A stretch of DNA of 24,000 nucleotides from Photobacterium rosenbergii (GCF_033022775.1 NZ_JAWJZI010000003.1:441185-465184); one strand, 5' to 3'. Shown: positions 1-13,071, counted from the first letter of the stretch. Notes: generated by a model from the letters alone, not told the origin. Program-made: numbers and translations.

Positions 1-1
1 A

Positions 2-1426
2 GGTGCCGCCGCTGGTGCGGGCTTTGTACTAGGCCGAGATCCGGATGCCAATGTCGGCTGGGGGCGCACCGAAGCAGGCAAGGACATGTATTTCAACCGC
101 GAGCCTTTTCGGGTAGATGTTGCCCCAACGATGGAAGTGGTCAGTGAGCCAGTCCGTCCTGAATGGAGCGACTTCCTGTTCCACCGCACCCGCGCATTGG
201 GTAAAGAAATGGGCAATGGCTGGGTACCGACCAGAGATTGGCGTGATATTCCCAATGAGCAAGTACGCGAGTATTACTCCCGCCACCCTGAGCGCTGGGA
301 TGACATGTACCAGTCATTCGAGGAGAAAGCCAAGCACGATCAGAATATCGAACAGCACCGAGACCGATTTGCCTTGGCGTGGGCCTATTCTGCAGCTTAC
401 CTGAAAGGTAACAGCAGCAACTTCCCGCCAAAACCCAAAGGGCATCCTGAGGAGGTCGATTTCCAATGGGTAAAACGTGAGCCTCAGCCCTTTAAATCGC
501 CTAAGCACGCGTCTGAGCTTATCAAGAAGATGGCGTTCAAATTCGGCATGAGTATTGTCGGCATCACCAAGCTTGATCCGAGCTTCGTGTTCAAAAACAC
601 CATGCGCGGCATGCCAGGCTGGGACGAAAGCATTCCGAAGCATTGGAAGAATGTAATCATCTTCGGTACTCCCATGAACTGGGATCCGATGTACGCATCT
701 ATCGGTTACTCTACCTCCTATGATGGTTACTTCCGTGCTAAGAATGCCTCAGGATTAATGGCTGCCTTCCTTGGAGAACTAGGTTATGCAGCCCGCCCAC
801 AATGGCCGGGCTCAGACTACGAAATAGTCGTGCCTCCGTTGGCTATCCAAGCTGGAATGGGCGAAGCCGCCCGAAACGGGATCTTACTGACCCCAGAACT
901 AGGACCCAATATCCGCCTAGCCGCTGTGATCACCGATCTGGATCTAGAGCCAGACAAACCTATCGATACCAAAGTGAAGCACTTCTGTGAAGAGTGCAAA
1001 ATCTGTGCTGATTCCTGCCCGAGTGGTTCAATCAGCAAAGCCGACAAACCGGATGCCGTGGTTCGGGGCTACCGCAAGTTCGATTTCAATCAAGACAGCT
1101 GTTGGACCATGTGGCGTCAAGGTCCGACCGAAACCGCTATGGGGTGCCGGGTTTGTATCGCGGTCTGTCCATATACCCGAAAGAACAACTGGATCCATGC
1201 ACTGGTCAAGGAAACCGATCCACGCGATCCAACCGGGCTAACGCGTAAGACGCTATTAGCAATGCAGCATAATTTCTTCTACTACCCAGAGGCAGAAGCT
1301 TATCACGGCGACTGGAACGGCGGTCGATTTGCCGGCTACCATCAGCCCCCGGAATGGCTACGTAGTGAGGAATACCTCAAGGTCGAGAAGACATGGGACT
1401 ACGACGGTAACTGGGAGGGCTTCTAA
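2..1426 (+). CDS. rdhA: Reductive dehalogenase-like catalytic subunit (RdhA family), 5'-partial; the start lies left of the window
   Basis: Frame 2 is open from nt 2 into the listed ORF 86..1426. It reads GAAAGAGFVLGRDPDANVGW..., an Ala/Gly-rich hydrophobic stretch like the h-region of a Tat signal, so the M at 86 is probably internal. The C-terminal third has CEECKICADSCP (C-x2-C-x2-C-x3-CP, nt 986-1021) and C-x14-CRVCIAVCP (nt 1100-1170). This is the two Fe-S motif arrangement typical of RdhA. About 475 aa are visible. The rdhB- and rdhC-like genes lie immediately downstream. Confidence 0.7.
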   Translation, partial: GAAAGAGFVLGRDPDANVGWGRTEAGKDMYFNREPFRVDVAPTMEVVSEPVRPEWSDFLFHRTRALGKEMGNGWVPTRDWRDIPNEQVREYYSRHPERWDDMYQSFEEKAKHDQNIEQHRDRFALAWAYSAAYLKGNSSNFPPKPKGHPEEVDFQWVKREPQPFKSPKHASELIKKMAFKFGMSIVGITKLDPSFVFKNTMRGMPGWDESIPKHWKNVIIFGTPMNWDPMYASIGYSTSYDGYFRAKNASGLMAAFLGELGYAARPQWPGSDYEIVVPPLAIQAGMGEAARNGILLTPELGPNIRLAAVITDLDLEPDKPIDTKVKHFCEECKICADSCPSGSISKADKPDAVVRGYRKFDFNQDSCWTMWRQGPTETAMGCRVCIAVCPYTRKNNWIHALVKETDPRDPTGLTRKTLLAMQHNFFYYPEAEAYHGDWNGGRFAGYHQPPEWLRSEEYLKVEKTWDYDGNWEGF

Positions 1427-1743
1427 TGTTTCCGCAATCAACAATTTTGGACCCATTGTTCTGGATGGCTTTCGGTGCCTTGCAAGTACTGGTCTTTTCC
1501 GGGGCTAATCAGTGGGCCAAGCAATTCGAGTTAGGGATGAACTGGTGGAAATGGACACTGGTCGGCAGTTGGTGGGCTTCAATGATTCTCACCATTGCTG
1601 GGGCTTTCACCTTGCTGGGTGAAAACGAAGGCCTCGCAGGTTGGTACTTCCTCGGATTTGTCGGCACCGGGCTGATAATCGCTGGGGCTGTACTGCTCAG
1701 AATCCTTATCGCCTTGAAACCCAAGCAAGCCATCGAAAACTAA
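1426..1743 (+). CDS. rdhB: Small 3-TM membrane protein, RdhB-like anchor of the dehalogenase
   Basis: The protein is 105 aa with three predicted hydrophobic helices: ILDPLFWMAFGALQVLVFSGA, WTLVGSWWASMILTIAGAFTLLG and WYFLGFVGTGLIIAGAVLLRILIAL. It is translationally coupled to the upstream gene by a TAATG overlap at 1424-1428. The call rests on size, topology and position rather than a recognisable sequence signature. Confidence 0.55.
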   Translation: MFPQSTILDPLFWMAFGALQVLVFSGANQWAKQFELGMNWWKWTLVGSWWASMILTIAGAFTLLGENEGLAGWYFLGFVGTGLIIAGAVLLRILIALKPKQAIEN

Positions 1744-1778
1744 TCCAGATATTTAATCGATCACATAGGAAAAGGGCC

Positions 1779-3095
1779 ATGAGACATCTAACCGGTGCCT
1801 CATGGCTTTGGAGATATATGGAAAGAAAAACCAAACCCCGGCGCAATAACAACTTTGACAAGTTTGTCAGTGTATTTTCAATCTTGGCCTTGGCGTTTGC
1901 GTGGTATCTAGGCGGGCAACGCAGCAACCACTCCCAAACCCAGTTCTTCGACAGCATCCTCACCAGTGACGAACAGCTTATCGAAGCTGCTCCCCAGCTC
2001 TATCGGATCGCAACGGCTATTGAGAGCGCCCCAGAGTCAGAAACAACACAAGCCTCCAGCAAGTGGGTCAGCTTCGGCAAAGGTGTTGGCTACGGTGGTG
2101 AACTTACCGTTGGTGCGGTATTTACCCCACACGGCGATATTGAGACCATCGCTTTACTGAGTTCGAAAGAGACAACTTCTTATTTTGACAAAGTGGTCGA
2201 ACAGAAGCTTCCCGAATCATTGCTCGAGAAGAATATCAAAACAGCGCTAACGGCCGATGCAGTAACCGGTGCAACCCTGACTTCGGAAGCCTACATCCAG
2301 GCAATAAACCAAGCATCCGATCCTGTTCGCATGGCGCTTTTTGGGTACCAGTTCAGCGAAGCAAAGCCTGCCTGGCAATATATAAAATGGCTCGATGCCG
2401 CAGCGTTGGTGTTCTTCATTGCCGCTGTCTGGGTTAACCGTACCCGCTCTGAGCATAAAGCCAAAATAAATGCGACCTTGCTGGCTGGCTCTACCCTGAT
2501 ATTTGGTTTCTACTCGGCATCACTCTACTCGGCTTCCACCATGGGGAGCTTGGTGTTAGGGACATGGGTCAGCGGTGTCGCCAGTTACACCCCGTTTATT
2601 CTTCTGGTGCTCAGTATCGGCTATATCCTTTACTACAACCGTAACGTGTACTGCCAAAGCCTGTGCCCATTTGGCGCCGTGCAGCAGTGCCTAGCCAAGG
2701 TGGGTAAGGCAAAGGCATCACCTCTGCGCCAATCTTTTTTTATCTGGTTCCCGCGGTTCTTGCTACTCGCCACGCTTTGCCTTGGTGCCTACTACCGAAA
2801 CCCTGCCGCTTTCGTCTACGAGCCGTTCGGTATCGCCTTTGGCATGATTGGCGGCATGTATCTGTTTATCCTCACTGTGATGATCCTCCTAACATCGTTG
2901 ATCGTTCGTCGTCCGTGGTGCCAAAGCTTGTGTCCGATCAATACCTTGACCGACTTTGTCGTATTCAATAAACACTGGTTCAAACAACTGGCTAAGCCAA
3001 AGCGTGCCAAACAGAAGTACCGTCCAGAGACATCAGGCAAAAGAATTCCTACCAAAAATGTACCGGTAAGAGAACACGAAGAGGAAGCCTTATGA
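1779..3095 (+). CDS. rdhC: NosR/NirI/PceC-like FMN-binding polytopic membrane protein (RdhC-like)
   Basis: An FMN_bind-type motif DAVTGATLTSEAY sits at nt ~2255-2290, after one N-terminal TM helix. About 5 further TM helices follow, with two CQSLCP (C-x3-CP) motifs at nt 2652-2669 and 2919-2936, as in NosR/NapH/PceC proteins. The start was chosen at ATG 1779 (AGGAAAAGGG upstream); ATG 1818 (GGAG upstream) is an alternative. The listed ORF start at 1641 overlaps rdhB and is rejected. Confidence 0.72.
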   Translation: MRHLTGASWLWRYMERKTKPRRNNNFDKFVSVFSILALAFAWYLGGQRSNHSQTQFFDSILTSDEQLIEAAPQLYRIATAIESAPESETTQASSKWVSFGKGVGYGGELTVGAVFTPHGDIETIALLSSKETTSYFDKVVEQKLPESLLEKNIKTALTADAVTGATLTSEAYIQAINQASDPVRMALFGYQFSEAKPAWQYIKWLDAAALVFFIAAVWVNRTRSEHKAKINATLLAGSTLIFGFYSASLYSASTMGSLVLGTWVSGVASYTPFILLVLSIGYILYYNRNVYCQSLCPFGAVQQCLAKVGKAKASPLRQSFFIWFPRFLLLATLCLGAYYRNPAAFVYEPFGIAFGMIGGMYLFILTVMILLTSLIVRRPWCQSLCPINTLTDFVVFNKHWFKQLAKPKRAKQKYRPETSGKRIPTKNVPVREHEEEAL

Positions 3096-3316
3096 GACAG
3101 CGCATTTCGCTTATTTTTTACTGCTTGGCCTCTGTAGTTATCGTGCTACATATCGGCTCGAACCTGATGACATTGGGCAGTGCGGATCACCAGCACACTG
3201 TATTGCACTCAGTAACTCGCCAAACCGAAGCGCAGACTAAGATCGTTGAACAAAGCACAGCACCAACAGTCGATTTCCAGCAGATGGCAAAAGATCTAAC
3301 CCAAGAAAAGTACTAG
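3092..3316 (+). CDS. Hypothetical 74-aa single-pass membrane protein with a His-rich stretch (SADHQHTVLH)
   Basis: An ATGA start/stop overlap with the rdhC-like gene (3092-3095) is preceded by GAGGAAG 4 nt upstream. The N-terminus is positively charged (MRQR) and is followed by one TM helix (ISLIFYCLASVVIVLHIGSNLM) and a hydrophilic tail. I recognise no family. Confidence 0.45.
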   Translation: MRQRISLIFYCLASVVIVLHIGSNLMTLGSADHQHTVLHSVTRQTEAQTKIVEQSTAPTVDFQQMAKDLTQEKY

Positions 3317-3325
3317 AAGAAAATA

Positions 3326-4198
3326 ATGACAACCAAGTGTATCCCCCTCGAGCGGCTGAAAAGAGAAGTGAACCTGATCAATCCGTTCATTAACAAGATT
3401 TCAGATCTCTATTCAGTGAGGGGGCTAGACGTCGTTTCCCGGCCACATCGACTAAACTTCAGTGCCTTAATCTACATAACAGAAGGGCAAGGTCTGCACT
3501 ACGTCGAACACCAACAGCACCGGCTGCGGACCGGCTCCATGCTAGTATTGGGCAAAAACCAGATCCACGCTTTTGCCAAAGAGCGCTCAGTCGATGGCTA
3601 CGTGCTGTCGTTTGATTGCAGCTTCCTATCGAACGGCAGTAACGACCCTTACTTTGATCTATTGCTTTCCGCTATGGTCCACATCAACTGCGTACATCAT
3701 GCCGACGAAGATATCGGGCCGCTTTTCAGTGCGATGGTCAATGAATTCGAATCAACGTCCGAGTTCAAAGACGAAATTATTCGTAACCTGATCCGCTCAA
3801 TCATACTCAAGGCGGTTGTTCCCAGCTATCAGCACCAGAAGCAATCATCCCAACGCATCGGCAACAACGACTACTACCGACTGAAGAAATATATCGATGA
3901 GCATTTTCAGGACAGACCAACCGCTGGCGACATCGCTCTGGCTTTGGGCAAAAGCACCAAACAGTTGGATAAGCTAGCCAAAGATCATGCTGGTCTTAGC
4001 GTCAAAGAATTGGTTGATGAAAGGGTACTGGTCGAAGCCAAACGCCTACTGGCTTTCAGTCAGTATTCGATTTCAGATATCGCAAACCGGCTTGGCTTCA
4101 ATGAAGCGACTAACATGACGAAGTTTTTCAAGCGCCATACCGATGTCAACCCGAAGGATTTCAGGCAACTGTGTAAAATAGGGCTACACCAAAAATAG
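3326..4198 (+). CDS. AraC/XylS-family transcriptional regulator
   Basis: The protein is 290 aa. The N-terminus is cupin-like (ALIYITEGQGLHYVEHQQHRLRTGSMLVLGKNQIHAF). The C-terminus has the AraC dual HTH (ISDIANRLGFNEATNMTKFFKRHTDVNPKDFR). It starts 10 nt after the preceding ORF on the same strand. Confidence 0.85.
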   Translation: MTTKCIPLERLKREVNLINPFINKISDLYSVRGLDVVSRPHRLNFSALIYITEGQGLHYVEHQQHRLRTGSMLVLGKNQIHAFAKERSVDGYVLSFDCSFLSNGSNDPYFDLLLSAMVHINCVHHADEDIGPLFSAMVNEFESTSEFKDEIIRNLIRSIILKAVVPSYQHQKQSSQRIGNNDYYRLKKYIDEHFQDRPTAGDIALALGKSTKQLDKLAKDHAGLSVKELVDERVLVEAKRLLAFSQYSISDIANRLGFNEATNMTKFFKRHTDVNPKDFRQLCKIGLHQK

Positions 4199-6449: not shown

Positions 6450-6854
6450 CTACAACTTCGGCTTGAGCTCCACCACATTCCCTTCGGGATCTTGGATATA
6501 GAGCGAGCGGCCAAAGCCTTCGGCGCCATAGCGTTCGGCAAAGCCTTCGCAAGGAATGTTATGCTGGGATAAATAGTCAAGCAGTGCTTGCTCTGAAACA
6601 GGCACGATCTGCAGACAAAAATGATCGAGGTTACGACCATCTTGGCTGGGCGGCTTACCGCCTAACTGGCCAAGTTGGCTATCAACGGTAACTAAGTCAA
6701 TCAACGCACTACCCGCTCGCAGTTGTACCAACCCCATCTCCTTGGGCAGTTCACGCTCCAGCTTTGCACCTAACACCTGGCAATAAAAATGCAGCATGTC
6801 AGACAGTTTGGTGGTTCTAAGCACTACATGGTCAATCCCTTCGAGTTTTATCAT
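6450..6854 (-). CDS. VOC (glyoxalase/bleomycin-resistance/dioxygenase) family protein
   Basis: The pattern MIKLEGIDHVVLRT...LDHFCLQI...GRSLYIQDPEGNVVELK is typical of single-domain VOC proteins. The start is assigned to the M at 6854; the ORF-track start at 6893 adds 13 aa. Confidence 0.75.
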   Translation of the reverse strand: MIKLEGIDHVVLRTTKLSDMLHFYCQVLGAKLERELPKEMGLVQLRAGSALIDLVTVDSQLGQLGGKPPSQDGRNLDHFCLQIVPVSEQALLDYLSQHNIPCEGFAERYGAEGFGRSLYIQDPEGNVVELKPKL

Positions 6855-6963
6855 CGCCGATCCCGTTACCCTGTCATTGATACCCACAAACACACATAGT
6901 TAATGATTTTCGCTTTTTCTTAGTATGAGCATTTCACTTTTAGTCTAATCAGTGTGGCCTAAG

Positions 6964-8193
6964 TTAAAAATTCCAGCGAATCTGGGCAAATAGTAAGGTG
7001 CTGGCAGTTTCACCGAACAAGCTATTACCGTTGCCGTCAAAGCGCTGGATAACCCCAAGCAATTGCCAATCATCTGCCAGCGAGTAGCTATTACTGGCGC
7101 CGACAAAGTACGACCCATCATCATAATAGGAGGCAGAGAGCGTCAGGCGGCTAAGGGGGGTAACATCCAGGCTAGCATCGGCATACGCCGTCCAACGGGT
7201 AAAACTCAATGTTCTGGCTGTTAGCGGCAAGTTCAAAAAGGCAATGGCATTTTGTGGGCCTTGCGGGTTAGAGATATATAGCACAGCACCGCGAGCCATC
7301 CAGTTGCGCTGGCCACCGAAGCTGTAATCCGTTTCGAGGGTGGCAACCGCTGTGTGTTCAAGCTCTTCATCTTGCCATTGCTCTTTGGTCGGTTCAAACC
7401 AAGTGAACTCCCCCCTGACACCTGCGCCTTGGACATCTCCGGCAAAACCTGCCCCGACAATAGTATCCAGCAGCGATTTTCCGACTAGCAGTTGATAATC
7501 CCACCCCTTGTGATTAAACAAGTAGCGCCCTGCATAACTGTTCAAATCACTGTCGGAATTTGGGTTAACGACCACATCGGCCGAGCTGGCAAAGCCAAGT
7601 TTGCGACTAACCATAACGGCGTCGCTGCCTGCCCGCTCTTCATAGTCAAAATCATAGATAGAATAGGAATTGAAAATATCGTTCGGGTTCCACAAAGTAG
7701 CCATTGCCCAGTTTATGCGAAAACGGCCGCCACGAACCTGCCAGTCATCGCGCTGCCAATTGACATACAGGCGATCAAACTGGCTGTTCCCCACCACGCC
7801 TTTCTTGTCCAGCCAGTTTTTCGACAAGTCCATATACCCAGTATCTATCGCCACCAGATCGCCATAGCCGGGCAGCTCTGCCGTATCGCCAAACAGTAAG
7901 CGGTTGCGCATCCCAGCATTGAAACGCAGATGTTCATTGAAGCGATATTCGAAGTTGAAGCGCTGGTGAATAAGGTGGTCAAGTCCGTTCGAGCCACCGT
8001 CTGGCAATGTCCCGGTTGCCATATACTTGACGTAGCCGTTGAGATCCCAGTCTTTTTCAGGCTCTAACCCCGGGATCTGGGCATTAGCCACCGGAGATAT
8101 CACGCCCAGCAAAGCAACTGCAGAAACTGAAACTATCCGTAATAGTCTTTTTTCGTACTCTCCCGCTACCACACCCTGTTTTATCCAGTTCAC
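6964..8193 (-). CDS. Putative outer-membrane beta-barrel protein, last gene of the tetR/LolA-like/ABC operon
   Basis: A signal peptide (LLRIVSVSAVALLGVISPVANA-QIP) is present. The sequence has many alternating amphipathic stretches and a C-terminal aromatic residue (IRWNF), typical of OMP barrels. The GTG start at 8193 overlaps the ATPase stop (GTGA). The family is not recognised. Confidence 0.6.
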   Translation of the reverse strand: MNWIKQGVVAGEYEKRLLRIVSVSAVALLGVISPVANAQIPGLEPEKDWDLNGYVKYMATGTLPDGGSNGLDHLIHQRFNFEYRFNEHLRFNAGMRNRLLFGDTAELPGYGDLVAIDTGYMDLSKNWLDKKGVVGNSQFDRLYVNWQRDDWQVRGGRFRINWAMATLWNPNDIFNSYSIYDFDYEERAGSDAVMVSRKLGFASSADVVVNPNSDSDLNSYAGRYLFNHKGWDYQLLVGKSLLDTIVGAGFAGDVQGAGVRGEFTWFEPTKEQWQDEELEHTAVATLETDYSFGGQRNWMARGAVLYISNPQGPQNAIAFLNLPLTARTLSFTRWTAYADASLDVTPLSRLTLSASYYDDGSYFVGASNSYSLADDWQLLGVIQRFDGNGNSLFGETASTLLFAQIRWNF

Positions 8194-8873
8194 TGGCGAC
8201 GATCCTCTTTGAGTTGCCCGTCTTCAAATACAATGACCCTCTTAGCCCGCTTGATCACTCTAGGATCATGGGTGGAGAAAATAAAGGTGGTGCCTTCCTT
8301 CTCATTGAGCTGCTGCATGATATCAAGCAGCTCGGAGGTGCTCTGGGCGTCAAGGTTCGCCGTTGGCTCATCGGCCATCACAAAACGGGGCCGGGGGGCG
8401 AGGGCCCTGGCTACCGCGACCCGCTGCTGCTGACCGCCCGACAGCTTGGCCGGACGCTTGTGCTGTTGATCTTCCAGCCCCACTTGGGTCAATAGCTCAC
8501 CCGCCCGTTGCCGGCAGGTTGATTCATCATGCCCTTGCAGCTGCATCACGAATTCGACATTTTCCAGCGCAGTCAGTACTGGTAGCAAGCTGTAATCTTG
8601 GAAGATAAACCCAACATGATCCCGCCGGAAGGCAATGAGTTCCTTCTCATCCAGCTGGCAAATATCGCAGTTATCAATAAGAACACTGCCCGAGCTTGGG
8701 CTGTCGATGCCGCCAATCATATTGAGCAAAGTTGTCTTCCCCGAGCCAGAAGGCCCCATGATCGCGACAAACTCCCCCTGTTCGACAGTAAGATCGAGAT
8801 CTTTTACCGCATGCACCGGGAAATCACTGTCAGCGTTATAGATTTTGCACAAGTTATTGGTTGAAATAGTCAT
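8190..8873 (-). CDS. ABC transporter ATP-binding protein (LolD/MacB-type)
   Basis: Motifs present are Walker A GPSGSGKTT, the signature LSGGQQQRVAVARAL, Walker B FVMADEPT and the H-loop STHD. The start is at ATG 8873 (MTISTNNLCKIY), 13 nt after the permease stop. The ORF-track start at 8972 overlaps the upstream gene. Confidence 0.9.
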   Translation of the reverse strand: MTISTNNLCKIYNADSDFPVHAVKDLDLTVEQGEFVAIMGPSGSGKTTLLNMIGGIDSPSSGSVLIDNCDICQLDEKELIAFRRDHVGFIFQDYSLLPVLTALENVEFVMQLQGHDESTCRQRAGELLTQVGLEDQQHKRPAKLSGGQQQRVAVARALAPRPRFVMADEPTANLDAQSTSELLDIMQQLNEKEGTTFIFSTHDPRVIKRAKRVIVFEDGQLKEDRRQ

Positions 8874-8886
8874 TAGTTCATCTCTG

Positions 8887-10146
8887 TCAGTGCTTATCGG
8901 CCATGGCATCAACAGGCCGCTGCTTGAGTATTTGCCGTGCAGGATAAAGCGCCGCCAACAGGCTGGCGGCAACCACCGTGAAGAAAATCATTTGGTATTC
9001 GGCAAAGGTGACCTGTGGAAACAGCAAGGTATCGACGCCAAATGCCCCCAAGCCTTCAGCCATTGCCCCAAGCGGGATCCCGGTGTACTGCAATACGCTG
9101 ATAAGCATAAGGCTCGCCAGCAGGCCAAGACTTGCCCCGGAGATCCCAAGCCATGCGGTTTCAAGCATGATCAGCAAAAACACACGGTGTTTTTGCATCC
9201 CGACCGCCATCAGCACACCGAACTCGCGGGTGCGCTCGAAAACAGACATCAGCATGATGTTGACGATGCCAAACCCCATTGCCACCACAAAAATCCCCAG
9301 CATAATGGCATTGCTAAGCCCCTGCTGATTGATCAGCGAGGCCAGCAAGGGCTGCACCTGTTGCCAGTCCCTGATCCGGTTACCAGTTTGAATGGCTTCG
9401 ACGCCTCTCAATCGCTGGGCTAGCAACATGGCAGCGTCATCGCTATCAAGCAAAATGGCCACCTCGTGTGCACCTTCAATTCCGGCCAATGCGGTAAGAT
9501 CGGCACGGCGAACAAAGACATTGCTGTCATCAAAACTGGTAGACGGCGTTTTGAAGATCCCCCTTACCCTGAAAGCCGCCCCGCTAACATCGCCAGCGGC
9601 ATCGGTAAAGGTGAGTACCACCTTGGAGCCAATACGCAGTTTAAGACGAGACGCAGTTTTCTCGGAAACCAGTACCGGGTTCCGTCCATCATCACTTAAC
9701 CACTCTCCTTGAGTAATATTGTCGGCCAGCGGGGTCACCGTCGATTCGGCTTGGGTATCAATACCATTAATACGAACGCCGCGGTTGCTGCGCGCTGATG
9801 CCACCATGCCATCGGCAACAAACCGGGCTGACCAACCTTTCAAACCAGGAAGTGCCGCAACTGCCTTCTCGACCTCAGACAGATCAACAATGGTGTGCTT
9901 GATATCAGGATCATCAAGATAAAGTGCACTCTGAACTTGAATATGGCTGGTCTGCCAGGCAATGGCATTGTGGATCATGCTGCCGTACATACCAGACAGG
10001 AACCCCATCATGGCAACGACCCCCATCAGGCCAAACACCATGGCGCCAAGCATGATCCCTGTACGCAATTTATTGCGCCAAAGGTTACGCCACGCTAGTT
10101 TGAAAAGCATATCTGTTCGCAAATAACTTCGCTTATCAGTTCGCAT
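8887..10146 (-). CDS. FtsX/MacB-type ABC permease (LolE/LolC-like), paralogue 2
   Basis: The protein is 419 aa. It has an N-terminal TM after LFKLAWRNLWRNKLRT, a large periplasmic domain of about 230 aa, and three C-terminal TM helices with the FtsX-type ERTREFGVLMAVGM motif. ATG 10146 has a consensus AAGGAGG 5 nt upstream and overlaps the upstream permease gene by 11 nt. Confidence 0.85.
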   Translation of the reverse strand: MRTDKRSYLRTDMLFKLAWRNLWRNKLRTGIMLGAMVFGLMGVVAMMGFLSGMYGSMIHNAIAWQTSHIQVQSALYLDDPDIKHTIVDLSEVEKAVAALPGLKGWSARFVADGMVASARSNRGVRINGIDTQAESTVTPLADNITQGEWLSDDGRNPVLVSEKTASRLKLRIGSKVVLTFTDAAGDVSGAAFRVRGIFKTPSTSFDDSNVFVRRADLTALAGIEGAHEVAILLDSDDAAMLLAQRLRGVEAIQTGNRIRDWQQVQPLLASLINQQGLSNAIMLGIFVVAMGFGIVNIMLMSVFERTREFGVLMAVGMQKHRVFLLIMLETAWLGISGASLGLLASLMLISVLQYTGIPLGAMAEGLGAFGVDTLLFPQVTFAEYQMIFFTVVAASLLAALYPARQILKQRPVDAMADKH

Positions 10147-11365
10147 GGCCGCCTCCTTTTAGCGCTTTGACGACTTCCAACCGGCGTATTCGCCACATCG
10201 GGTACATCAGGCAAACCACCAGCAGCACCAAAACAATAAGAATTTGATCAAGCATCAGCACTGGGTCCAGCGCCATTGGCAGGATAGGATCCCAGCCCAT
10301 TTCCAAGACCAGCTCGGCGGTTTCCCCTGTCAGTGTGATCGGGTTGAAATAAAACCACACCAACACAGGCAGGGTGATCACCATACCCATTGCTATCCCA
10401 AGGAAGCCTATCATCAAGGACTCCAGCCCAATCAAGGTGATGATTTTGCGCTTTAGCATACCGGTTGCTAGCATGACGCCAAATTCTCGCTGGCGCTCCA
10501 AAGTCATCATCAGCAAGGTGGCAAACAAACCGAAACCAACAACGCCGTACAGCAGGTACATGATGAAAATGCCGCCGGCCTTATCCATCAGAATTTGCTG
10601 GGCCATTTCCGGTGCCAAATCTTGCCAATCCCGCACATTGACCGTGTCGCCGTAAGCTTGTTTGAGCTGAGCCTCCGTCGCATTTAGTTGGCCAAGGGGC
10701 TTGATATCCAATACCCATGCCGTTACCTGCTCTTCGGTACTGTAAAGGGTTTGGGCGAGTGCGATTGGCATATACACCAGCTGGCTATCGAGCTGGGCAA
10801 CGGGGAAGTCCAAGATCCCTTTGACCCGGTAAAGCCCTGCTGCGGTCTGCCCACGATAACCCTGGCCGTAGAGGATCAGCTCATCCCCAACGCCTAAACC
10901 AAAATAGCGAGCAACGCCTTCACCGATGAGCACTTGCTGATCGTCGGGTGATAGGAAATCTCCCCTCTCCAAACGATTGGAGATGTTGGAATAACTGTCT
11001 TCTGCTTGAGTGTCGACCCCGAGCACCATCACGCCTTTGGACTTGTCCCCAGAGGCCGCTAAAGCAAATGATTCAATACGCGGTAAGACTCGGATAACAG
11101 TCGGGTTGGTTGACACAGGTTCCAAGAAAGCCCTATCCATCGGCAACAGATCATCAATGCTGTTGCTTTCGGCAAACTCTGGGTGCTGTAGCTGGATAAG
11201 GCCGGTATAGAAACGAGCCGCGTTTTCGATATTGTTGGCGTACGTCCCTTCCTGCAGGCTACGCATAAACAGCGACAAGGCCAATGTCAAAGCCAGGGCA
11301 GAAGCCGTCAGGATAGTGCGCCGCTTCTGCCGCCAGATATTACGCCAAGCTAATTTCAATAACAT
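10136..11365 (-). CDS. FtsX/MacB-type ABC permease (LolC/LolE-like), paralogue 1
   Basis: The protein is 409 aa with N-terminus MLLKLAWRNIWRQKRRT and the same architecture as paralogue 2, including the ERQREFGVMLATGM motif. AAGGAAG lies 4 nt upstream of ATG 11365. Confidence 0.85.
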   Translation of the reverse strand: MLLKLAWRNIWRQKRRTILTASALALTLALSLFMRSLQEGTYANNIENAARFYTGLIQLQHPEFAESNSIDDLLPMDRAFLEPVSTNPTVIRVLPRIESFALAASGDKSKGVMVLGVDTQAEDSYSNISNRLERGDFLSPDDQQVLIGEGVARYFGLGVGDELILYGQGYRGQTAAGLYRVKGILDFPVAQLDSQLVYMPIALAQTLYSTEEQVTAWVLDIKPLGQLNATEAQLKQAYGDTVNVRDWQDLAPEMAQQILMDKAGGIFIMYLLYGVVGFGLFATLLMMTLERQREFGVMLATGMLKRKIITLIGLESLMIGFLGIAMGMVITLPVLVWFYFNPITLTGETAELVLEMGWDPILPMALDPVLMLDQILIVLVLLVVCLMYPMWRIRRLEVVKALKGGGHAN

Positions 11366-11395
11366 GGTTCTTCCTTGTTGACCCGCTCCCAGCCC

Positions 11396-12145
11396 TTAAT
11401 CACGCAGCGACTTCATCTGGCTTTGGGAGAAGAAACTTTCTTTAATCGGGAAGTTGAACTGGGCTTGATGGGTAATGATTTCCGTTTTATTGCCCGGTTT
11501 ATCCGCAGGGATCATTTCCATCCGCGAGGCCACCTGGCGCCCGCCCATATATTTCACGTCGTAAGTGTTCATGGTATTGATCAGATCATCGAATTCGTCA
11601 TAGAACTCAACTTTGCGTTGCAGGTAGGTCTTCTTGGAGACCCATAGCCGAACCTTGCTCCAGACTACCGGCGCATTAGGCTTAGCAATGGCATCAATCA
11701 CCCAGCTGGCGTCATTATCAAACACTTCGCCACCCACCATTTTGTGGGTGTAATCCACCACAATGGATGACTGGTTGATCAAATCATCATTGGTAAAGTC
11801 TGAGCCCATCCAGGACTGACCCAGCATCGAAGGGGCGATTTTTACCACCCGCTCGATACTCGGCAACCAATTCCACATTTCCCGGTAGCGCTTGAGTGAC
11901 GCGCTGCCTTTGTCTTTGGCGGGCGCGGTTACTAACACCAAGGATAAATCTTGCCCTTTAGTCCAGCTTTTCATGCTCATGGTGCGGGTCCAGTCTGGAC
12001 GCACAATGCGCATGGTCGCTTCGGCATAACTGGAGTCACCCCGCATCTGCTGATCCGACTTTCTGACTATTGAGGTTGCCGACTCTGCCATCGCCCAAGC
12101 TGGAAGGCAGGCCAGGATAACCAACAAAACCTTAAGTGATTGCAT
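11396..12145 (-). CDS. Periplasmic LolA-like protein (outer-membrane lipoprotein-sorting protein family)
   Basis: A signal peptide (MQSLKVLLVILACLPAWAMA-ES) is present. The pattern MRIVRPDWTRTMSMKSWTKGQDLSLVLVTAPAKDKGSASLKRYREMWNWLPSIERVVKI matches what I recall of LolA_like domain proteins. The start is at ATG 12145, with AAGGAGG upstream overlapping the tetR stop. Confidence 0.62.
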   Translation of the reverse strand: MQSLKVLLVILACLPAWAMAESATSIVRKSDQQMRGDSSYAEATMRIVRPDWTRTMSMKSWTKGQDLSLVLVTAPAKDKGSASLKRYREMWNWLPSIERVVKIAPSMLGQSWMGSDFTNDDLINQSSIVVDYTHKMVGGEVFDNDASWVIDAIAKPNAPVVWSKVRLWVSKKTYLQRKVEFYDEFDDLINTMNTYDVKYMGGRQVASRMEMIPADKPGNKTEIITHQAQFNFPIKESFFSQSQMKSLRD

Positions 12146-12155
12146 TAACCCCTCC

Positions 12156-12836
12156 TTATTCCGTAAACCATGCGTGCAGTAGTTGATCATTGATCAAAGG
12201 CATACTGCCTGGCTTCGCCCCAACCATACGCTCAAGCACTAACTGAGTCGCTTTTACTTCTACAACAACCTCATCAAGTAAATCTGACATTTTGTCGGTG
12301 TTTAGCATTTTGCGGGTGAGCTCTTCCGAAAAGCCGTTAAGTACGCTGACCATCAACCTGGCGGTGACCGTGGTAGAAGGTGCATCAAACACCTTTTCTT
12401 GATTACCCTGGCACAAAATGACTTCGTAATAGCCTGCGAGCAAAGCACTGACTTTTTGCATGAAGTTATGCTTTAGCTGCAGATTTTCATCCATATTGAT
12501 GATCTTAAAGAAGCCCAGCATGATGTCTTTCTGACCAATTTCCCATTGATTAGTCCGACGCAACAGAGTCTCCCATTTGGTTAACGCATTGAGGTTGGGA
12601 TCCTCTACCAAGCCCCCGATCACCTGGCGGTACTGCTCCAGCATGTCATCACTCCACGCCTCCAGCACCGCTTGCTTGGAATCAAAATGATGGTAAAACG
12701 CCCCTTTGGACACCCCCACATGCTGGATAAGATCATTGACCGAGGTATTGGCATAGCCTTTAGAAAAAAACAGCGCATTGGCTGCAGCAATGAATTCTGC
12801 CCGCCGCTCCTGCGGCGACTTTACGACTCTTGGCAT
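12156..12836 (-). CDS. TetR/AcrR-family transcriptional repressor, first gene of the operon
   Basis: The N-terminal HTH reads RRAEFIAAANALFFSKGYANTSVNDLIQHVGVSKGAFYHHFDSK. The start is at ATG 12836, with AAGGAAAGGGG upstream. The ORF-track start at 12911 would translate through the operator palindrome. Confidence 0.85.
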   Translation of the reverse strand: MPRVVKSPQERRAEFIAAANALFFSKGYANTSVNDLIQHVGVSKGAFYHHFDSKQAVLEAWSDDMLEQYRQVIGGLVEDPNLNALTKWETLLRRTNQWEIGQKDIMLGFFKIINMDENLQLKHNFMQKVSALLAGYYEVILCQGNQEKVFDAPSTTVTARLMVSVLNGFSEELTRKMLNTDKMSDLLDEVVVEVKATQLVLERMVGAKPGSMPLINDQLLHAWFTE

Positions 12837-12853
12837 ACCCCTTTCCTTTACAG

Positions 12854-12870
12854 ACCGACCGACGGTCGGT
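12854..12870 (-). promoter_or_regulatory. Candidate TetR operator: perfect palindrome ACCGACCG-N-CGGTCGGT
   Basis: A perfect 8-1-8 inverted repeat lies 18 nt upstream of the tetR start codon and 8 nt downstream of the predicted -10 hexamer. Confidence 0.5.
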
Positions 12871-12878
12871 ATATGAAA

Positions 12879-12907
12879 AGCATATTCCTGATTGATATAT
12901 TTTTCAA
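12879..12907 (-). promoter_or_regulatory. Predicted sigma70 promoter of the tetR operon
   Basis: On the minus strand, TTGAAA (12907-12902) is followed by a 17-nt spacer and TATGCT (12884-12879). This is a pattern match only. Confidence 0.35.
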
Positions 12908-13071
12908 TCAAAAGGTTCTAGCTCACTAATGAACAAAAGAGCCACCACTTTCGTAATAGGTAACGTGGGCCGTTAAGTAATAAAACGACTTGACGGCTAA
13001 CCACATAGCAGCCATTGCATAACTCCAGCGTCTGGCAATGACAACCGAGAGAGTATTCAAGTGAGGTTTAC

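Follow-up and report, generated by a model that had tools for sequence, protein, structure and literature searches.

A Lol-like ABC extractor, a LolA-fold carrier and an outer-membrane barrel in one TetR-headed operon of Photobacterium rosenbergii: a probable outward route for hydrophobic molecules

Background

The known routes for hydrophobic molecules across the Gram-negative envelope are continuous ducts, in which a resistance-nodulation-division (RND) pump or an ATP-binding cassette (ABC) pump with a membrane-fusion protein (MFP) is joined to TolC; bridges, such as Lpt and possibly the Tam/Yhd-type proteins; and the Lol shuttle, which serves lipoproteins. Here we analyze an operon in 24,000 nt of Photobacterium rosenbergii DNA (G000:C3:441185-465184, referred to as the window, whose positions are used for all coordinates unless a contig is named), which suggests a further solution wherein a Lol-like extractor and a shuttle feed a private barrel. 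The module comprises a periplasmic carrier, two ABC permeases, an ATPase and an outer-membrane (OM) beta-barrel, and in the window it is headed by a TetR-family regulator. We consider it probable (roughly 60%) that this module moves a hydrophobic or amphipathic molecule other than a lipoprotein outward, and that TetR makes it inducible in this organism. MacB, LolCDE, FtsEX and YbbAP, the described type VII ABC systems, act from the periplasmic face outwards or mechanically, and we know of no type VII ABC importer.

Among these systems, LolCDE-LolA-LolB (LolCDE in E. coli, with LolDF as its counterpart in other bacteria) resembles the module in having two different permeases with four transmembrane segments and MacB-type periplasmic domains, a separate ATPase and a soluble LolA-fold partner, with no adaptor and no TolC. 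It differs in that the module proteins score far under the Lol equivalog cut-offs, the carrier belongs to PF17131 and not PF03548, a predicted barrel of about 18 strands takes the place of LolB, the Hook region appears shortened, and the module is accessory, patchily distributed and here TetR-controlled. MacAB-TolC shares the MacB_PCD and FtsX fold, the mechanotransmission type of ABC motor and an efflux-like operon logic, whereas the module has neither a membrane-fusion protein nor a TolC-type duct and its nucleotide-binding domain (NBD) is unfused. The exit of MacAB-TolC is a trimeric TolC duct, whereas that of the module is modeled as a single-chain barrel of the OprD/AlgE/MOMP class; a continuous channel in the former is replaced by a shuttle protein across the periplasm in the latter.

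In YbbAP-TesA of E. coli, too, a type VII ABC works with a periplasmic partner of its own on membrane-embedded hydrophobic molecules, and lipids and hydrophobic compounds are taken out of the inner membrane by the ABC for that partner (PMC12646458). The partner there is a hydrolase, whereas here it is a carrier together with a barrel, and the permeases are split, although a variant of the module described below has a fused double permease like that of YbbP. The Borrelia BBJ23-29 cluster also unites a MacB-like type VII ABC with a LolA-like protein and an OM beta-barrel; its barrel is of the Omp85/BamA family, its permease is homodimeric, and it includes TPR proteins. Export of non-polar ligands has been proposed for BBJ23-29 from an in silico model only (PMC13078400).

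The clusters of DUF1302, DUF1329, BNR (Ycf48-like) and RND (HAE3) genes, such as AmeABCD and Sama_1588-1591, are alike in combining an OM barrel, a LolA-superfamily protein and an inner-membrane pump, and in lacking both an MFP and TolC. They use an RND motor and a BNR protein, whereas the module uses a type VII ABC and has no BNR or RND component. The DUF1302 barrels are 540-600 aa long, compared to about 400 aa for the window barrel, which does not match PF06980, and DUF1329 proteins have about 450 aa compared to about 250 aa in the PF17131 carrier. In Castellaniella defragrans, monoterpenes induce AmeABCD (DUF1302 barrel, DUF1329, BNR and HAE3 RND), and deleting it reduces tolerance to monoterpenes and increases Nile Red influx (PMC6394551). 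[quoted passage not shown] Our literature searches, which do not extend to most subscription journals, found no experimental study of a cluster with the composition of the module, in agreement with an earlier note on this DNA which knew of no experimentally defined substrate for such clusters.

Operon structure and domain content

Six open reading frames (ORFs) on the minus strand fill positions 6964-12911, or 6964-12836 when counted from internal ATG starts, which were chosen on ortholog coverage. Their products are as follows.

12156-12836, minus strand: TetR-family regulator, 226 aa from the ATG at 12836 (TetR_N, E 3.9e-16)
11396-12145, minus strand: LolA-fold periplasmic carrier (PF17131 LolA_like), 249 aa (E 2.3e-54)
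10136-11365, minus strand: type VII ABC permease 1, 409 aa (MacB_PCD and FtsX, Pfam)
8887-10146, minus strand: type VII ABC permease 2, paralog of permease 1, 419 aa (MacB_PCD and FtsX, Pfam)
8190-8873, minus strand: ABC ATPase, LolD/MacB-NBD-like, 227 aa from the ATG at 8873 (ABC_tran, E 3.1e-36)
6964-8193, minus strand: OM beta-barrel of an unnamed family, about 18 strands predicted (AlphaFold2 and fold search)

Counted from tetR, the first two junctions leave 10 nt and 30 nt, the third is an 11-nt overlap, the fourth leaves 13 nt and the fifth is a 4-nt overlap formed by the start and stop codons of the ATPase and barrel genes. No inter-gene terminator-like site with a convincing T tail was seen in the operon. 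The earlier note, made from the sequence alone, had described six packed genes with exactly these spacings, and all of its ORFs are present. Its domain assignments also hold up against profile searches: TetR_N, LolA_like, MacB_PCD/FtsX and ABC_tran were all matched by hidden Markov models (HMMs), the second gene encodes a LolA-like protein with a type I signal peptide, and the two permeases are MacB/LolCE-type paralogs. For the last gene, which it had called a barrel-type OM protein, the sequence profiles are silent, and structure prediction and fold search agree on the barrel.

The cluster is not the only lolCDE of the organism, a possibility which the earlier note had raised. The true lolC and lolE genes lie at G000:C2:10528-13647 and score 507 and 450 bits on the lolCE model, while canonical LolA (PF03548) and LolB (PF03550) are each present in single copy (G000:C3:545743-546219 and contig C33, respectively), all of them outside the module. 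Within the family, the barrel was found in 57 of the 201 sampled species and in 5 of 13 genera, and the carrier at ortholog level in 59 of the 201. The module is accessory, not housekeeping.

Conservation of the five-gene core

To define the extent of the module, loci were collected with the barrel as seed from one genome per species, yielding 154 relatives, of which 80 gammaproteobacterial loci were analyzed. About 76 of the 80 keep the order carrier, permease 1, permease 2, ATPase and barrel on one strand, and the remaining four or so are too short to show the whole cluster; since related genomes were compared, these and the following co-occurrence counts are of non-independent samples. The loci belong to Photobacterium, Vibrio, Aliivibrio, Ferrimonas/Paraferrimonas, Shewanella and Psychromonas, with one record labeled Marinobacter. 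A phylum-wide sample contained barrel homologs in 63 of 401 genomes. We analyzed 18 of the most distant loci, which come from other classes and whose barrels match that of the window with E values of 1e-6 to 1e-12, and 13 of them have the same five-gene order. Three others, from three genomes of one class (L091-L093), carry a fused-permease variant consisting of the carrier, the ATPase, a YbbP-like double permease of about 830 aa and the barrel; the last two are partial.

The association was also tested in reverse, by searching for the carrier in the same 201-species sample with orthologs defined by at least 59% identity. In 55 of the 59 genomes with a carrier ortholog, the barrel lies 3-5 kb from the carrier on the same contig. 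The four exceptions, all from one genus (g222, L112-L115), are remnants in which the carrier gene is intact but of the permeases, ATPase and barrel there is either nothing left or stubs of 62, 122 and 31 residues beside a cbpA-like gene. No genome in the sample was found to hold an intact pump and carrier without the barrel. The five core genes are thus inherited and lost as a unit, and their conservation across classes together with joint decay argues for one functional unit. The earlier note had treated all six genes as belonging together; this stands for the five core genes and does not for TetR, which is lineage-specific.

Several single loci depart from the common arrangement. In Aliivibrio, a cbpA-like gene for a J-protein (DnaJ and DnaJ_C domains) has been inserted between the ATPase and barrel genes (8033-8938 of locus L041 in A. 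fischeri ES114, NC_006840.2; also L032-L036, L042 and L044), and the same loci have a gene for a PEMT/ICMT-like membrane methyltransferase upstream of the carrier. The barrel gene is split in two frames in one genome (G524), and in another (G438) there is a barrel fragment with an in-frame TGA. The module in the record labeled Marinobacter nauticus DP3N21-5 (L025, JAHVJZ010000001.1) is about 70% identical to that of Ferrimonas balearica assemblies from the same study and shares downstream flanking genes with them, which points to a larger block having been transferred horizontally or to an assembly that is mislabeled.

The extractor and the carrier

The two permeases are 30% identical to each other (E 1e-44). 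Their best NCBIfam model is lolCE (TIGR02212), on which they score 134.5 and 109.4 bits, compared to a cut-off of 362.45. Over nearly their full lengths, the closest solved chains are LolC and LolE for permease 1 and LolF and LolC for permease 2, whereas the match to MacB is confined to the FtsX part. The Hook hairpin of LolC recruits LolA. Aligned with E. coli LolC, permease 1 has a 6-residue gap at the Hook position (...SQFTPMGRIPSQR...), a suggestive deletion which is read at low identity and in permease 1 only. The ATPase has intact motifs in translation (Walker A GPSGSGKT, signature LSGGQQQR, Walker B FVMADEPT and the H-loop His), and it is placed near several families at once: 219.2 bits for LolD (TIGR02211, cut-off 307.75), 214.9 for DevA, 211 for the MacB NBD, 210.3 for FtsE and 198 for YbbA. 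A membrane-fusion (HlyD-type) adaptor was found neither among the six genes nor as a recurrent extra neighbor in 98 loci.

The carrier matches PF17131 only, not PF03548. Its solved relatives are 9TP6 (P. gingivalis LolA3, the best at E 1.2e-17), 3BUU, 4Z48 and 3BK5. All 92 carrier orthologs have type I signal peptides (AxA followed by E or Q), and a lipobox-like string occurs in 8 of the 92, which is the level expected by chance. The carrier was considered as a lipoprotein and this was rejected, as the ILAC motif seen here is ILAY in the closest ortholog, with Tyr in place of Cys. Because of the type I signal peptides and the lack of a conserved lipobox, the carrier is predicted to be soluble like LolA and not anchored like LolB. 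The authors describing its relative LolA3, which binds the cognate LolB only very weakly and has neither the arginine conserved in LolA nor the leucine of LolB, ascribed a separate function to it (PMC13103446).

The outer-membrane barrel

By sequence, the barrel has no match in Pfam, NCBIfam or the PDB, and a Pfam search of the window barrel and four orthologs up to E 10 returned nothing. UniRef names such as “Alginate export domain-containing” were set aside, as Pfam did not reproduce them. An AlphaFold2 model built from a 40-sequence alignment is a confident beta-barrel (mean pLDDT 86.7, pTM 0.77), and its Foldseek neighbors are 18-stranded OM barrels at a TM-score of about 0.57, namely MOMP, chitoporins, OprD/Occ and AlgE, with C. 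jejuni MOMP at E 2.7e-12. The protein ends in an aromatic beta-signal (...IRWNF). Based on the confident model and its placement by Foldseek, the protein is predicted to be an OM barrel with no close solved relative.

The best ortholog of the barrel is from P. rosenbergii at 91% identity, and an exhaustive search of the family gave 1230 clusters (50% identity) at E <= 1e-3, of which 336 are at E <= 1e-30. Close members have no Pfam domain, and several distant ones weakly match DUF1302 (PF06980), the best with 26.6 bits against a cut-off of 23.2. Judged by these profiles and by the profile alignment given below, the family is a remote relative of DUF1302 and not a member of it by the curated model.

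Conservation in the family peaks in a non-strand loop, residues 159-192 of the barrel (window 7617-7718), with 75-89% column identity among representatives that are about 30% identical overall. Its motif, NW...LWNPNDiFN.YS..DFDYEER.GSDA, is rich in acidic and aromatic residues, and the loop is a candidate plug, constriction or docking site. A related motif also occurs in DUF1302-type barrels.

A second barrel and carrier in the same genome

A second PF17131 gene (E 3e-51) is present on contig C28 of the same genome, within a cluster at G000:C28 ~16600-31500 (L090:4671-16767, L111:493-5527). The cluster encodes, in series, an acyl carrier protein (ACP), a ketosynthase (KS), a KS-like protein, a KS, a KS-like protein, a 956-aa aminotransferase fusion, two short-chain dehydrogenases/reductases (SDRs), a 403-aa protein, the LolA_like carrier, an MMPL/RND pump and a TetR. 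The whole resembles a lipid or polyketide-amine-type biosynthetic cluster with its own export set, and the biosynthetic genes may supply the cargo of the C28 pair. Homologs of the 403-aa protein carry PF06980, and AlphaFold2 models it as a confident barrel (pLDDT 88) with the same structural neighbors as the window barrel. In each of the two models, 30-35 residues that form no strand are inserted after strands 5-6, and the C28 barrel family has a motif related to that of loop 159-192: VVNPLDLKDFVLFDIDDYR.

Simple comparisons of the window and C28 barrels are weak: BLASTP gives E 0.01, a shallow profile against the single sequence gives 2.5% probability, and an HMM of 142 representatives against a single barrel sequence gives 5.4 bits. 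The alignment of an 86-member profile of the window family with a 29-member profile of the C28 family by hhalign, however, reaches 92% probability and E 6.6e-7 over 289 columns, nearly end to end. Because of this profile match and the shared fold class, the barrel and the LolA-fold carrier appear to be a pair of common origin that can be driven by either a type VII ABC or an RND motor. The C28 cluster thus resembles the window module in its carrier family (PF17131), in a related barrel of equal size and fold class and in its TetR, and differs in the RND motor and the biosynthetic surroundings, as the window module has no biosynthetic neighbors. What is new here is the distant DUF1302 kinship of the barrel family and the existence of this second barrel and LolA_like pair on an RND pump. 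By analogy, we infer that the module may combine Lol-type extraction with delivery of the DUF1302/DUF1329 type.

TetR and its operator

The TetR of the window reaches no NCBIfam equivalog cut-off, and its C-terminal domain has no match to a curated family. Its gene lies directly upstream of the carrier gene in 13 loci, in Photobacterium and Ferrimonas/Paraferrimonas; elsewhere the upstream genes are unrelated (GGDEF, DUF3332, glgC-like and, in Aliivibrio, PEMT/ICMT-like). As TetR heads the operon only in part of Photobacterium and in Ferrimonas, the portable module consists of five genes, not six. Two regulatory features are predicted upstream of tetR in the window.

12854-12870, unstranded: predicted TetR operator, a perfect 17-bp dyad, ACCGACCG-T-CGGTCGGT (8-1-8, read directly)
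12879-12907, minus strand: sigma-70-like promoter candidate, TTGAAA-17-TATGCT (consensus scan, 9/12 matches), 8 nt upstream of the operator

The dyad sits between the promoter-like site and the tetR ATG. In every one of the 13 loci with TetR, it recurs 18-60 nt upstream of the tetR start, as ACCGAC(C/G)GTCGGTCGGT or, in one Ferrimonas, as the core ACCGACGGTCGGT, and it is kept in Ferrimonas and Paraferrimonas although the TetR identity drops to 35-41% and the flanking DNA cannot be aligned. With such a phylogenetic footprint, the putative operator assignment is strong. The exact dyad occurs once in the 5.9-Mb genome, which suggests a regulon of one operon. A wider regulon was considered and rejected: the exact site is unique, and the lone site with two mismatches falls below a reversed-pattern control, i.e. 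at chance level. Promoter-like matches in the region are no commoner than in shuffled sequence, and for this reason a single promoter is unproven. Of the one promoter and operator proposed in the earlier note, the palindrome therefore stands, while the promoter is an unproven consensus match. The arrangement fits a TetR-headed operon with a predicted palindromic operator at its own promoter. TetR-repressed operons headed by their own repressor are typical of efflux.

Proposed function and alternatives

[quoted passage not shown] The carrier would cross the periplasm with the molecule and reach the barrel, which would either insert it in the OM or pass it through. TetR would sit on the 17-bp dyad over the promoter until released by a small ligand, possibly the cargo or a related compound. 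Because of the TetR control, the module in this Photobacterium is more likely to be an inducible exporter of a membrane-partitioning compound than a constitutive biogenesis system. The earlier note's reading of the cluster as an accessory Lol-like route is supported, whereas its ideas that the barrel replaces LolB and of what is moved, and in which direction, are carried here as proposals. The dedicated TetR and its conserved operator offer a handle for derepression and for an inducer-ligand search, since the inducing ligand is likely to be cargo-related. The module is widespread, including the tractable Aliivibrio fischeri ES114, and we found no defined cargo or published phenotype for it; the C28 pair beside its biosynthetic cluster is a natural comparison, where the cargo may be predictable.

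Four points weigh against this mechanism. For the direction of transport, the only basis is that type VII ABC systems are known to act outward. Most lineages have no TetR, so inducible xenobiotic efflux may be a local adaptation and not the ancestral role. When 787 flanking ORFs from 98 loci were clustered, no non-core neighbor other than TetR was recurrent, and the neighbor analysis thus yielded no recurrent cargo-related gene. Finally, the DUF1302/DUF1329 fitness data leave the direction unfixed, because they are pleiotropic and have been read as either envelope export (10.1101/072470) or ester use (10.1101/2020.07.04.188060).

A broader proposal, which we make tentatively and with less than even confidence, is that the barrel and carrier pair is a general, motor-independent OM delivery unit which can serve either a type VII ABC extractor or an RND/MMPL pump. 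If so, the ABC version would add a fifth functional class to the type VII systems FtsEX, LolCDE, MacAB and YbbAP, one dedicated to shuttle-based, adaptor-free and TolC-free export of lipophilic small molecules or lipids across the whole envelope.

The alternative that survives best, which we still consider doubtful, is export of a lipid of the cell's own envelope, for instance a lyso-lipid, amino lipid or glycolipid, in which case the module would serve OM homeostasis and not detoxification. The core is ancient, spans classes and occurs without TetR, and the RND-coupled pair on C28 lies inside a lipid/polyketide-like biosynthetic cluster. Described systems point the same way, as YbbAP draws lipids as well as hydrophobic compounds from the inner membrane (PMC12646458) and export of a cell-wall component has been proposed for DUF1302/DUF1329/RND systems (10.1101/072470). 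A homeostatic role is harder to reconcile with a module that is dispensable, patchy (57/201 species) and decayed in some Aliivibrio, that has no recurrent biosynthetic gene beside its ABC version, and that is here apparently repressed by a TetR with a single-site regulon.

A specialized lipoprotein route is unlikely. Under this explanation, a subset of triacylated lipoproteins would be extracted by the pump and ferried by the carrier, with the barrel in place of LolB, e.g. for surface exposure. The permeases do have LolC, LolE and LolF as their closest solved relatives and lolCE as their best NCBIfam model, the carrier has the LolA fold, and an in silico study of Borrelia BBJ23-29 made a comparable proposal (PMC13078400). 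However, the scores are far under the Lol equivalog cut-offs in a genome with a complete LolABCDE elsewhere, permease 1 has the apparent deletion at the LolC Hook position, and the carrier is of PF17131, whose member LolA3 is not paired with LolB and lacks the LolA arginine (PMC13103446). In addition, TetR control suggests a small-molecule inducer, and no lipoprotein gene recurs beside the module.

An inward route is very unlikely. The barrel would here admit a hydrophobic nutrient, the carrier would ferry it, and the ABC complex would hand it to the inner membrane for catabolism. To our knowledge no type VII ABC imports, no catabolic genes recur beside the module, and a TetR repressor at the head of the operon that it controls is a typical efflux arrangement. 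These considerations outweigh the resemblance of the barrel to the substrate-specific channels OprD/Occ, the location of DUF1329 genes in aromatic and steroid catabolic islands, and the growth defects of P. putida DUF1302/DUF1329 mutants on Tween 20 and butyl stearate (10.1101/2020.07.04.188060). That the genes are chance neighbors, or the barrel an unrelated porin, can be dismissed even though the barrel is unannotated at family level and its structural neighbors include general porins. Gene order and strand hold across classes where barrel identity is very low, there are overlapping start and stop codons, the genes co-occur in both directions of search and are lost jointly, and the synteny already contradicts such a chance arrangement.

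Neighboring genes

The genes that flank the core vary between lineages. In the window, a reductive-dehalogenase operon occupies positions 1-4198. A link between it and the module was rejected as a conserved association, because it is near the module in only 2-3 of the 80 loci (P. satsumensis, P. minamisatsumaniensis and partly P. makurazakiensis; L012, L014 and L015); among the relatives, it was not found within 9 kb of the module in P. rosenbergii or in sp. BZF1. In a small-genome family of another class (L094-L108), a conserved psd-pssA-leuA block follows the module, with a cNMP-binding gene on the opposite strand in between. This block is probably a housekeeping neighbor, though its context is phospholipid synthesis.

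One further gene follows the operon in the window.

6450-6893, minus strand: glyoxalase/VOC-superfamily gene (PF00903, E 2.3e-11), outside the core

It begins 70 nt past the barrel stop on the same strand, and no terminator-like site was found between the two. The gene holds this downstream position only in the four closest Photobacterium loci, and it may be a lineage-specific passenger that is co-transcribed with the module.

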